This document shows positions 4,861 through 19,628 of a stretch of DNA of 64,000 nucleotides, in pieces. Where the stretch lies: positions 1 through 64,000 of the IMG/VR virus record IMGVR_UViG_2576861193_000004; one strand, given 5' to 3'. This DNA is from a virus. Taxonomy: Duplodnaviria > Heunggongvirae > Uroviricota > Caudoviricetes. Under the pieces are notes generated by a model. The model had not been told where the DNA came from. It searched no databases and saw only the letters and a program-made list of their open reading frames with translations. Numbering within the stretch: the first letter of the stretch is position 1; each line of letters begins with the position of its first letter. Made by a program: the position numbers and the translations under genes.

Positions 4861-5889
4861 TTACAGAGAGTCCAGCTCTCTCAGTAGGTCATCCAGACCT
4901 TCATCTTCCGTCGCAGATGCGGTTGCTACAGATGTCGCTGCGACTGCTTCAGACTCTTTGACTGATACGGCAACGGCAGCGGAACTTGCCTCTGGTTTAA
5001 ATTCAGTTTCAACGGCACGGAGGATTTCTTCATCAACCAGACTGGTTGGTTCAGAAGCCGGTGTGTGCGCGGTTGCTACAGCCGTCGCTCCTTCTGTATG
5101 ACCAGTGACAGAGCCAAATCCAGGTAGTGCCGCAGCCGATGTTTTCGCGGTTGAGGAAATTGCTGGTGCAGATGCTGCGGCAGTTGGTGCAGCGATGCCA
5201 ATCAGACGACCCATAGTGCGAACTGTCGACAGAAGACGAGTTTCATCAGCCTGATTTGCGTATGCGATCAGATCATGCTGGGTGTTCCAGAATTTATCTT
5301 CGATATCGCCTTTGTAGACTTTACGCTTAGGCGAGACGTCATATTTGGTATCGCGACCAGAGCCAGTACGTTTAATCAGGAATGCGTAGCCTTCCTCTTT
5401 GCTCAGTGGATTGCCGATATCATCAGCGATGTCTTCGGTGATTGCTTTGCAGATATCATCGAATACAGTAGACGGCAGCTCGATTAACTGGCATTTCTCA
5501 GCATCTGCGAAATCCTCACGAGCAGAAAGAATGCCGTTGACCAGGTAGCGAGGAGTGGCACGCATTTGACCGATGCGTTCTTCCATTGCTTTGTTACCCT
5601 TGTGACGAGCGCGACCTTCCATCACCATTTCGCATAGCTGACAAGCGCGACCATGAGTATGTTGCTCACAAATATAAGCGATGGTTGCTTCTTTACCTTC
5701 CTCGTTCTGATACTTAACGTAGTGCATACCGAAAGTCTGGAAGAACTTACCGTTTGGGTCGTCCTTATTCGGGAAGATACGGATATAGTTGACGCCATCT
5801 TTTAAGCGAGTCAGATCAACGTTGTTACCACGTTTGGCGGCAATGTCTTCACGAGTTTTGTTAAGCAAATCAAGTAATGTCTTAGACAT
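4861..5889 (-). CDS. single-stranded DNA-binding protein, T4 gp32-like (putative)
   Basis: YIRIFPNK resembles the gp32 IRFLPSK region; Cys/His cluster CEQHTHGRACQLC (possible zinc site); Ala/Ser-rich linker and acidic C-terminus DEGLDDLLRELDSL typical of SSB tails. By-eye similarity only. Confidence 0.5.
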   Translation of the reverse strand: MSKTLLDLLNKTREDIAAKRGNNVDLTRLKDGVNYIRIFPNKDDPNGKFFQTFGMHYVKYQNEEGKEATIAYICEQHTHGRACQLCEMVMEGRARHKGNKAMEERIGQMRATPRYLVNGILSAREDFADAEKCQLIELPSTVFDDICKAITEDIADDIGNPLSKEEGYAFLIKRTGSGRDTKYDVSPKRKVYKGDIEDKFWNTQHDLIAYANQADETRLLSTVRTMGRLIGIAAPTAAASAPAISSTAKTSAAALPGFGSVTGHTEGATAVATAHTPASEPTSLVDEEILRAVETEFKPEASSAAVAVSVKESEAVAATSVATASATEDEGLDDLLRELDSL

Positions 5890-8203: not shown

Positions 8204-8357
8204 GACACAACGGCCAGTTTATTCCATAAAAGTGAATTGCCCATTGTGGCGAAATGCGGGGTTGCCGCATGAATAGTCAAAGGCAGAAGCTAACTGCCGG
8301 CATGGCAAAACAAAGTGCGTAAGAGGAGTGACTTCCTCAACAAGCGCCATAATTCTT

Positions 8358-18406: not shown

Positions 18407-18438
18407 GCAAAAAAGGGGCCGAAGCCCCTTTGAATTTT
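18407..18438. terminator. bidirectional hairpin terminator candidate
   Basis: aggggcc-ga-agcccct stem flanked by an A-run upstream and T-rich sequence downstream. Confidence 0.5.
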
Positions 18439-18586
18439 GCGCTGAAAAAAAGTGTTGCTAGGATGTTAGCAAGCTATGGTTAAGAACGTCTGCCGTAATT
18501 GTCTATCACAGCGTTGAGCGGTCTGGTTTATGTTAGCGGAGTCTTAATCTGGGTGATTAAAAGGCCAAACCGCTCAACGCTGTGTC

Positions 18587-18673
18587 TGGCGGAGAGTAAT
18601 GGAATCGAACCATCATCGCTTGCGCAATGGGACGGTTTTCAAGACCGCTTGAGCACCATGCTCCCTACTCTCC
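18587..18673 (-). tRNA. tRNA-Ser: tRNA-Ser (anticodon UGA), type II with long variable arm
   Basis: Manual fold of the reverse complement: 7-bp acceptor stem GGAGAGT/ACTCTCC, discriminator G, encoded CCA, T-loop TTCGATT, anticodon loop CTTGAAA. 87 nt. Confidence 0.8.
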
Positions 18674-18772
18674 AGCTATTGTGATGGTCGGTGCTGAACT
18701 CCGACACAGGGTTGTAGCAAGCCCCGCAAAGCGCGCACTACTGTAGTTGCGGCACATCAGCCTGTGCATTCA

Positions 18773-18862
18773 TCACAACGGTAAGATCACTACCTTTCGA
18801 CCAGTCATTGTGCACATGAACGACGATTAACCGTAATGATCTTATCGTTGTGTTGTGAAGCC
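18773..18862. repeat. long stem-loop 1 in tRNA spacer (arms CACAACGGTAAGATCA / TGATCTTATCGTTGTG)
   Basis: About 17-bp inverted arms with one mismatch, separated by about 50 nt; paralogous to stem-loop 2. Confidence 0.6.
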
Positions 18863-18900
18863 AGATGCTTATCTTCTGGTTGCTTCAAAGAGCTGCACTT

Positions 18901-18996
18901 CCTCACAACGGTAAGAGCACTGGTCTGACTCTATCGATTTACGGGCTTGTGGGTCAGTATCGCCGATTCGCCCAATGCTCTTACCTGTTGTGTTGG
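18901..18996. repeat. long stem-loop 2 in tRNA spacer (arms CACAACGGTAAGAGCA / TGCTCTTACCTGTTGTG)
   Basis: About 17-bp inverted arms separated by about 50 nt; right arm abuts the 3' end of tRNA-Thr. Confidence 0.6.
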
Positions 18997-19069
18997 TGCC
19001 GGTTAACGGGATCGAACCGCTGACATCCTGCTTACAAGGCAGGCGCTCTACCAACTGAGCTAAACCGGC
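18994..19069 (-). tRNA. tRNA-Thr: tRNA-Thr (anticodon UGU)
   Basis: Reverse complement GCCGGTTTAGCTCAGTTGGTAGAGCGCCTGCCTTGTAAGCAGG...GGTTCGATCC...AACCGGCACCA: D-stem GCTC/GAGC, anticodon stem CCTGC/GCAGG, loop CTTGTAA. 76 nt. Confidence 0.85.
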
Positions 19070-19073
19070 AATT

Positions 19074-19160
19074 TGGTGGGGAGTGATGGAGTCGAACCAC
19101 CCGAGTCGCAATGACAGTAGATTTACAGTCTACCCCGCTGCCCCTACGGACTAACTCCCC
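19074..19160 (-). tRNA. tRNA-Tyr: tRNA-Tyr (anticodon GUA), type II
   Basis: Acceptor GGGGAGT/ACTCCCC, anticodon arm GTAGA-CTGTAAA-TCTAC, long variable arm, T-loop TTCGACT, CCA encoded. 87 nt. Confidence 0.8.
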
Positions 19161-19165
19161 TAAAT

Positions 19166-19240
19166 TGGCGATGGTGGGTGGATTCGAACCACCGACCAGT
19201 TGGTTAACAGCCAACTGCTCTACCGCTGAGCTACACCATC
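19166..19240 (-). tRNA. tRNA-Asn: tRNA-Asn (anticodon GUU)
   Basis: Acceptor GATGGTG/CACCATC, D-arm GCTC-AGCGGTA-GAGC, anticodon arm GTTGG-CTGTTAA-CCAAC, T-arm GGTGG-TTCGAAT-CCACC, CCA encoded. 75 nt. Confidence 0.85.
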
Positions 19241-19506: not shown

Positions 19507-19628
19507 CACAACGTTGAGGCCACTACTCCGATTGAATGTTTGCCCAACATGTTACATATCAACGCTCGCCGGTATCTCTGTGAATAGAACCTTAGAATTG
19601 ATAAAAATGTAATGGCCTCAACGTTGTG
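19507..19628. repeat. perfect 15-bp inverted repeat CACAACGTTGAGGCC / GGCCTCAACGTTGTG separated by 92 bp
   Basis: Read directly (arms 19507..19521 and 19614..19628); shares the CACAACG core with the tRNA-spacer stem-loops. Confidence 0.7.

Follow-up and report, generated by a model that had tools for sequence, protein, structure and literature searches.

Structured RNA hairpin modules in the tRNA cluster of a P1-related phage-plasmid and in other enterobacterial phages

The tRNA cluster and its hairpins

The subject of this study is a 64,000-nt stretch of tailed phage DNA (positions 1 to 64,000 of IMG/VR record IMGVR_UViG_2576861193_000004, hereafter the window) and specifically the spacer between its tRNA-Ser and tRNA-Thr genes, in which an initial annotation had seen two paralogous long stem-loops. 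The window derives from a P1-related E. coli phage-plasmid, with Escherichia phage CMS-2020a and Cyrano as its closest viral records. Its tRNA cluster lies on the minus strand, as do the adjoining protein genes, and of 5426 complete E. coli genomes, 81 carry near-identical copies of the 596 nt from 18480 to 19075 on plasmids of ~100-120 kb, with RefSeq/PGAP annotation limited to the tRNAs. Similarly, ARAGORN and the Rfam tRNA model called four tRNAs in the window, but neither the spacer hairpins nor an adjacent tRNA-shaped module that we refer to as X. As detailed below, the hairpins belong to a family of structured RNA modules that is widespread and unannotated and occurs in enterobacterial phage tRNA clusters and late transcripts. 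In the sense of transcription, the modules of the window are arranged in the order SL4, tRNA-Asn, tRNA-Tyr, tRNA-Thr, SL2, mini-X, SL1, X, tRNA-Ser, SL3, and terminators (Table 1).

Both of the predicted inverted-repeat pairs are present in the spacer, and their dimensions differ slightly from the proposed arms of ~17 bp and loops of ~50 nt, the actual stems being 19-21 bp long, with one additional bulged A in SL2, and the heads measuring 39 nt in SL1 and 48 nt in SL2. SL1 is built upon 23-nt arms (18771-18793 and 18833-18855) that are 87% complementary and 39 nt apart, while the arms of SL2 lie at approximately 18904-18924 and 18972-18992. In the RNA sense, SL2 reads 5' CACAAC-A(bulge)-GGUAAGAGCAUUGG, followed by its head and CCAGUGCUCUUACCGUUGUG 3', and it starts only 1 nt past the CCA of tRNA-Thr. 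The two hairpins have the direct repeat TTCMTCACAACGGTAAGAKCACT in common with 91% identity. When folded as RNA of the tRNA strand and compared with dinucleotide shuffles, SL1 reached -30.2 kcal/mol (z = -5.0) and SL2 reached -36.2 kcal/mol (z = -5.9), with 0 of 200 shuffles folding as well in either case; the 323-nt spacer as a whole yielded z = -4.6 on the minus strand. A picture of two local paralogues was, however, too narrow. Two further hairpins of the same cluster, SL3 and SL4, had been missed, the family extends to unrelated enterobacterial phages, and the remainder of the spacer is occupied by additional modules, namely the tRNA-shaped, STnc100-like X and a probable shortened version of it. 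SL3 starts 2 nt past the CCA of tRNA-Ser, is followed by the operon terminators, and is retained in Cyrano and in both CMS-2020a records. SL4 is located upstream of tRNA-Asn in the same direction of transcription and has an GUGAAGACAGG...CCUGUUUUCAC-AAC element downstream of it.

Table 1. Coordinates of the tRNA genes, RNA modules, and terminator-like hairpins in the window
Feature	Position	Strand	Description
Terminator-like hairpin 2	18409-18428	minus	GGGGC-UUCG-GCCCC then U6; read from sequence
Terminator-like hairpin 1	18445-18472	minus	UUGCUA-ACAUCC-UAGCAA then CAC + U7; read from sequence
SL3	18507-18584	minus	stem CACAGCGUUGAGCGGUUUGG/CCAGACCGCUCAACGCUGUG; z = -9.7
tRNA-Ser(UGA)	18587-18673	minus	ARAGORN and Rfam
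Module X	18681-18776	minus	tRNA-shaped RNA; not called by ARAGORN
SL1	18774-18852	minus	20-bp stem, 39-nt conserved head
mini-X	18856-18903	minus	closed by GAAGC/GCUUC; T-arm-like hairpin CCAGA-AGAUAAGCA-UCUGG; ends CUUCAC-AA
SL2	18904-18992	minus	20 pairs and one bulged A, 48-nt head
tRNA-Thr(UGU)	18994-19069	minus	ARAGORN and Rfam
tRNA-Tyr(GUA)	19074-19160	minus	ARAGORN and Rfam
tRNA-Asn(GUU)	19166-19240	minus	ARAGORN and Rfam
SL4	19507-19628	minus	122 nt, stem CACAACGUUGAGGCCAUUAC/GUAGUGGCCUCAACGUUGUG; z = -6.7

The RNA operon ends at two intrinsic-terminator-like hairpins between 18409 and 18472, which were called by eye from the sequence and were not listed by a consensus terminator scanner. 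It should also be noted that P1 carries a different tRNA set (Asn, Thr, and Ile) from that of the window (Asn, Tyr, Thr, and Ser).

Conserved stems and the strand under selection

Viral contigs were scanned for both arms of the hairpins with a free gap of 40-70 nt, which identified at least 119 loci. Among these are 49 unique hairpins that share a stem of ~20 bp and carry at least 12 unrelated head classes of 68-94 nt, while a structural scan recovered further stem types, with stems overall comprising 19-24 pairs. Pieces of the window spacer recur at 75-97% identity in P1, P7, D6, SJ46, and both 9NA-like and rV5-like phages. The family members in P1 lie beneath the annotated opposite-strand open reading frames (ORFs) upl and plp, those of the rV5-like Phapecoctavirus phages (e.g. 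DE16) are found within tRNA arrays, and those of the 9NA-like Sashavirus and Nonanavirus phages (Sasha and PJ16) occur in genomes that have no tRNAs. The commonest class, at 77 nt, belongs to lambdoid prophages, where it is positioned between the Q antiterminator and holin genes, after a terminator and before a tRNA-like element; this copy and its flanks are present in 666 of the 5426 complete E. coli genomes. In a scan of one genome per species, members were confined to the Enterobacterales (Escherichia, Pantoea, Erwinia, Rahnella, Ewingella, and Mixta), aside from a few chance-like matches.

The stems were aligned as 27 distinct arm pairs with their heads trimmed. Standard pairs occupy 96.7% of the cells of this alignment and double compensatory changes are found at 12 of the 21 pairs, values that were matched by 0 of 500 shuffles; sliding the 3' partners as a control reduced pairing to 33-54%. 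The initial annotation, which named a lack of conserved pairing in relatives among the results that would speak against it, passes on this point. The lower stem has the consensus CACAAC(A)GNURAG paired with CUYANC-GUUGUG, above which the next four or five pairs vary freely with covariation, and near the top of the stem an invariant U-A is preceded by a U.G, C-G, or U-A pair. When a bulge is present, it is always an A at offset 6 of the 5' arm (11 of 11 cases).

Every neighboring tRNA is co-oriented with its hairpin, and 41 hairpins, including those of rV5-like phages, start 2 nt past the CCA of tRNA-Thr(UGU), whereas in contexts lacking tRNAs, the hairpins run the same way as the late genes and terminators around them. 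Among 40 unique hairpins adjoining tRNAs, G.U pairs outnumber A.C mismatches by 31:10 when read in the tRNA sense, with the ratio being reversed on the other strand. Covariance model scores are likewise higher on the minus strand than on the plus strand (21.7 vs 13.5 bits and 21.2 vs 14.1 bits). Since the orientation follows transcription and the G.U pairs favor the tRNA strand, selection appears to act upon the RNA. The proposal that the spacer encodes structured RNA elements co-transcribed with the tRNAs, as small stable RNAs or processing elements, is supported in part by this comparative evidence, i.e. the conserved pairing, the orientation, and the G.U bias.

The covariance model, R1, was built from the loop-trimmed arms. 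On the window, it scored SL1 and SL3 at ~21 bits and SL2 at 12 bits and missed SL4, and it is a weak tool for discovery because the real heads are long insertions. A weak R1 match at 8206-8248 of the window (15 bits, E ~0.05, CACAACGGCCAG...CCCATTGTG) is short, poorly paired, and probably due to chance. Searches of the hairpins against Rfam 15 with permissive filters (E <= 10) returned only chance-level matches to microRNA precursors and small nucleolar RNAs at 13-18 bits, and Rfam scans of the P1 and lambdoid relatives likewise found no family for the hairpins. Identities as Y RNA/YrlA, 4.5S RNA, tmRNA, ribozymes, ROOL, or GOLLD were rejected, as there was no Rfam signal for any of them. An exact-sequence literature search with the conserved arms had no match, nor did keyword searches for upl/plp, tRNA-cluster stem-loops, and noncoding RNAs of tRNA arrays.

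Several individual loci illustrate the range of contexts. Among the ten tRNAs of the rV5-like phage DE16, only tRNA-Thr has a family hairpin directly after it, and this association is kept even though its sequence is very different from that of the window tRNA-Thr. In the Salmonella phage Sasha, a second long hairpin with an unrelated stem (GUUUUACAUAACUGGU...; 2327-2406 of locus L006) is found together with the family hairpin and a mini-X-like element in a single untranslated stretch of ~400 nt, which lies between two structural genes and terminates at an annotated terminator. In two lambdoid prophage loci (L018, 1429-1555; L028, 3034-3160), the element directly downstream of the 77-nt hairpin is tRNA-like, having a canonical D-arm (AGCUCAAUGGCGAGCU) and T-arm (GCCGGUUCGAUUCCGGC) with a long insertion in the anticodon-arm position; its Rfam tRNA score is 26.5 bits against a threshold of 29. 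The prophage Qin of E. coli K-12 MG1655 has a divergent family hairpin downstream of cspB (locus L129, ~5200-5330; CACAAUGGUUAGCAUA.../...UAUGCUAGCCAUUGUU, + strand as read), which is followed in the RNA sense by a GUGGUGAAGUGCAGG...GCACCAC element and a terminator, all without RefSeq annotation.

Heads, tRNA-shaped modules, and spacer turnover

The heads are more than filler. The SL1 head is better conserved than its stem across P1-like, rV5-like, and 9NA-like phages: the SL1-class stems of these three groups show nine compensated pairs, while the head remains ~75-80% identical. In the window, the apex of SL1 is a 4-bp stem, UCAU/AUGA, closing the loop GUGCACA, with the palindrome GTGCAC at 18810-18815. 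A dedicated scan for SL1 heads identified 52 loci with 34 unique variants (L143-L189), all of which have a 3-4-bp apical stem that closes a 7-nt loop formed by a hexamer and an A. Three perfect palindromes account for the hexamer in 32 of the 34 variants, namely GGGCCC (19 variants), GUGCAC (7, the window included), and GCGCGC (6), and the non-palindromic intermediate GUGCCC was encountered in only 2. From this distribution, we conclude that positions 2 and 5 covary in a manner that keeps the loop self-complementary. As pairing within a single 7-nt loop is not possible, the loop sequences are most simply explained by a kissing-loop homodimer and suggest that the SL1 class may form such dimers. 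The strands flanking the SL1-class apex, AUCGUCGU and CUGYUCGAA, are invariant. The SL2 head was found at 16 loci in two versions, which differ by replacement of the inner stem CUGAC/GUCAG with CAGCC/GGCUG, and one locus (L014) has an SL2-type head with CAGCC/GGCUG inside a different enclosing stem.

Module X has an acceptor-like stem (GUGAUG/CAUCAC in the window), a D-like hairpin (GCAC-AGGCUGAU-GUGC), and a T-like hairpin (GUCGG-AGUUCAGCA-CCGAC), and its D-like and T-like loops are complementary (GCUGA/UCAGC). Across the X family, four parts can be recognized: the acceptor-like stem GUGRUG/CAYCAC, the D-like hairpin with the loop AGGCUGAU, a variable middle, and the T-like hairpin with the loop AGAUCAGCA. 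Ten distinct members have 94% of their cells paired with double changes at 11 of 21 pairs, which supports four helices. The loop-loop interaction is included in this covariation, as 3 of its 6 pairs have double changes (GCUGAU/AUCAGC becoming ACUGAU/AUCAGU or GUCGA/UCGAC). X shares its 5' GUG with the 3' end of SL1, and in general the GUG that ends a hairpin also opens the X or mini-X that follows. Between the 3' end of X and tRNA-Ser lies AAUAGCU, and no terminator is present there. Mini-X is the part of the spacer that is kept in P1, P7, D6, SJ46, and Sashavirus; its thermodynamic z-score is not significant, and from its resemblance to the 3' part of X, it is presumably a shortened X.

In P1 (NC_005856, locus L004), upl and plp lie at 1330-1917 opposite three family hairpins, one X, and one STnc100-like element, and a fourth hairpin is located at 2273-2353 of the same locus between the dicF-like region and tRNA-Asn. 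This P1 annotation, which places two genes over homologous sequence, would favor coding on the opposite strand. However, the only plus-strand ORF in the window spacer encodes 52 aa and runs into tRNA-Thr, none corresponds to upl or plp, and the ORFs of the spacer had no Pfam or PHROG matches. For the P1 proteins themselves, the PHROG matches of Upl were only to P1-like annotations of unknown function, Plp had none, and neither had a Pfam match. Because relatives have the homologous blocks rearranged and preserve no ORF, upl and plp are probably annotation artefacts over RNA modules. An antitermination site of the boxA type (NusB/NusE) could also be envisaged, given that the commonest 3' arm contains UGCUCUUA, which bears a resemblance to boxA (CGCUCUUA in lambda and UGCUCUUUA in rrn). 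The octamer would be hidden in a helix, however, and it sits in the freely covarying part of a single stem subtype, being absent from other stem types (GUUCUCAA and CGCUCAAC). Since boxA has a conserved single-stranded core of the GCUCUUUA type, whereas the UGCUCUUA positions are base-paired and covarying, this identity was rejected. We regard coding and antitermination together as an extremely improbable account of the hairpins.

The spacer between tRNA-Thr and tRNA-Ser has lengths of 8, 224, 320, and 490 nt in four close relatives, the shortest being that of Cyrano and the 320-nt version that of the window (18674-18993). These versions differ by whole modules with junctions at repeated CACAA(C) motifs, and the 320-nt block is gained or lost via recombination between CACAA repeats. 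In Cyrano (locus L001, 3375-3384), only 8 nt (ACACAAUU) separate tRNA-Thr from tRNA-Ser, and tRNA-Tyr is absent as well. Such turnover raises the question of whether the hairpins might be DNA-level elements, either recombination linkers or selfish palindromes that shuffle modules, with the RNA structure being incidental. Besides the modular variation of the spacer, this would be consistent with the occurrence of one head in different stems and one stem with different heads. The hairpins also resemble integron attC sites and bacterial miniature inverted-repeat transposable elements (MITEs), which likewise are 60-140-nt imperfect inverted repeats whose ends are conserved and whose center varies, with an extrahelical base and a link to modular gain and loss. 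Yet the compensatory changes preserve an intramolecular pairing that linkers working by sequence identity would not need, and the G.U bias points toward the transcribed sense. In addition, the orientation relative to transcription is fixed in at least 6 independent contexts. The attC core GTTRRRY/RYYYAAC does not fit the observed GTTGTGT/TCACAAC beyond the AAC/GTT triplets, and there are neither target-site duplications at the junctions nor an IntI integrase. No recombinase is common to the P1-like, rV5-like, 9NA-like, and lambdoid contexts; the one encoded ~1 kb from the hairpins is a generic Phage_integrase family protein that is absent from the latter three. Sites of the attC, MITE, repetitive extragenic palindromic, and dif-like kinds were all rejected on the grounds that the core consensus and the orientation do not fit, the pairs show G.U bias, and the contexts have no recombinase in common, and we consider a DNA-level role in general to be rather improbable.

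A further alternative is that the hairpins are decayed tRNA genes or functionless spacer debris. They do fill tRNA-sized slots of tRNA arrays, T-arm-like motifs are present in several heads (GGGUUCGAAUCCC in P1 and GAGUUCGACUC in CMS-2020a, for example), and the spacer is dispensable in Cyrano. Neutral debris, on the other hand, would lose its 20-bp stems, which here have been kept through 12 compensated positions, and the same applies to a palindromic loop kept through three alternative hexamers and to persistence in unrelated phage lineages and five other genera. We judge this alternative to be very unlikely.

A model for processing, its alternatives, and known systems

In the reading that we favor, with moderate confidence, the hairpins are RNA modules of a minus-strand tRNA/small RNA (sRNA) operon and are excised by tRNA processing. 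The operon would be read from the minus strand as one polycistronic unit, with each of its units folding during transcription. Each hairpin module folds into a ~20-bp rod, whose lower 13 bp are the hallmark of the family, with a class-specific head on top. The rods begin 0-2 nt past the 3' end of a tRNA or tRNA-like element. With the rod flush against the end of the upstream tRNA and its GUG overlapping the downstream tRNA-shaped element, we infer that ordinary tRNA maturation could accomplish the excision: RNase P cleavage at the start of the downstream X or tRNA, together with the 3' trimming that completes the upstream tRNA, would yield an RNA of ~80-120 nt with both of its ends inside a helix. 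Helix-buried ends guard an RNA against 5'-end-dependent attack by RNase E and against 3' exonucleases, and a released RNA of this type should consequently be long-lived. The common lower stem may serve as a determinant for processing, protection, or protein binding, while the heads would carry class-specific functions, which for SL1 is most likely homodimerization via its palindromic apical loop.

A number of points weigh against this model. The analysis demonstrates the structure with its conservation and covariation, the strand bias, the modularity, and the distribution. Transcription as a single unit, excision, and stability are each deduced rather than observed, as would be any role in trans, and stability alone does not explain the strong sequence conservation of the lower stem. 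Cyrano does without the entire 320-nt block, so the modules are dispensable for a phage, and the indel junctions at CACAA motifs are equally compatible with a recombination-driven spread. A search of the 64-kb window for antisense targets of the heads produced only chance-level matches of 8-12 nt.

The hairpins might instead be purely cis-acting punctuation, either as sites for RNase III (or another double-strand-specific enzyme) or as folding insulators that separate tRNAs, sRNAs, and mRNAs, in which case the liberated fragment would have no function. RNase III accommodates a duplex of roughly 22 bp (PMC6212723), and the stems, at 19-24 bp, fit the nearly uninterrupted duplex of ~20-22 bp expected of such a site. 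Punctuation would also suit the locations of the hairpins at tRNA 3' ends, ahead of terminators, and in the leaders of late operons. It would likewise suit a pattern in which sequence conservation is concentrated in the lower stem, beside the junctions with the tRNAs, and the heads differ fully between classes. Within a class, however, the heads are kept across unrelated phages to a greater extent than the stems and have covarying features of their own, none of which would be needed by a cleavage site, and the tightly packed tRNAs elsewhere in the operon do without such an element. We view punctuation as unlikely.

An extension of the excision model is also conceivable, in which the hairpin and X modules constitute a modular RNA system of enterobacterial phages with a common handle, formed by the conserved lower stem, and interchangeable heads, at least one head class self-associating through its covarying palindromic kissing loop. 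The excised RNAs would then act in trans, for example by assembling from RNA alone in the manner of ROOL and GOLLD, or by serving as decoys for host factors or defenses directed against tRNA or double-stranded RNA. This is a speculative proposal that we find doubtful as it stands, but its consequences would be considerable. If true, upl and plp of P1 would not be genes but the antisense of these RNAs, and stable trans-acting RNAs of this type would form a new class beside T4 species 1 and 2, ROOL, and GOLLD in a tractable host. The functions of such tRNA-island phage RNAs are a long-standing puzzle. Irrespective of function, P1 and the lambdoid prophages, which are among the best-studied genetic systems, carry a covarying RNA family that has no Rfam model or annotation and no description in the literature searched, and tRNA and sRNA modules are evidently shuffled between unrelated phages.

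Among known RNAs, the closest to module X is the prophage sRNA STnc100 (RF02076), to which X is distantly related. Both STnc100 and PasD are prophage sRNAs that are expressed and associate with Hfq (10.64898/2026.05.13.724894; PMC12370729). As in these sRNAs, X has a tRNA-like arrangement with an acceptor-like closing stem (GUGGUGAAU...CACCAC) and D-like and T-like hairpins, and the contexts are also alike in that, in lambdoid prophages, a family hairpin lies just ahead of the bona fide STnc100 copies. The P1 copy of X scored 33.4 bits against the STnc100 threshold of 47, while true members score 130-139 bits, and the window X had no match to RF02076 even at E <= 10. Unlike STnc100, X is without an intrinsic terminator and poly-U (the Hfq-binding 3' end) and has the covarying loop-loop pairing GCUGAU/AUCAGC, and the family hairpins are not part of the STnc100 model.

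For the apical loop of SL1, two precedents are relevant. The dimerization initiation site (DIS) hairpin of human immunodeficiency virus type 1 has a short stem and a loop with a purine-flanked 6-nt palindrome, for which GUGCAC and GCGCGC are the natural hexamers. The SL1 class contains both of these hexamers within a self-complementary apical loop that covaries, although its loop is 7 nt vs 9 nt in the DIS, the biological contexts are unrelated, and the SL1 dimer is a prediction. ROOL and GOLLD are structured RNAs of phages and prophages that are often encoded near tRNA islands, have no known function, and use quaternary kissing loops maintained by covariation (PMC12286853). The covarying self-complementary loop of the SL1 class is comparable, but the Rfam models of ROOL and GOLLD are unmatched, the modules are 80-120 nt in contrast to ornate RNAs of 580-800 nt, and their oligomerization is deduced only from a 6-nt palindrome.

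With respect to the overall layout, an analogy can be drawn to the tRNA-microRNA-encoded RNAs of murine gammaherpesvirus 68, in which one or two long hairpins are joined directly to a tRNA or tRNA-like element of the virus and are freed by tRNA 3' processing. The tRNA-plus-hairpin arrangement may work in a similar manner, but that system is from a eukaryotic virus and employs RNA polymerase III, tRNase Z, and Dicer, and there is no homology between the two. Nearer in context are T4 species 1 and 2 (rnaC/rnaD), small structured RNAs with no known function whose genes lie among those for the phage tRNAs; they are co-transcribed with the tRNAs and released by tRNA-processing enzymes. The window hairpins likewise lie in a phage tRNA cluster, on the same strand as its tRNAs. 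They differ in being ~20-bp rods with interchangeable heads, in forming hairpin-plus-tRNA-like units, and in recurring across unrelated phages and prophage late regions. The resemblance that the initial annotation saw to the T4 stable RNAs is an analogy, and no sequence or structural homology to them was sought or found. The family is new within a known kind, that of structured RNAs embedded in phage tRNA clusters.

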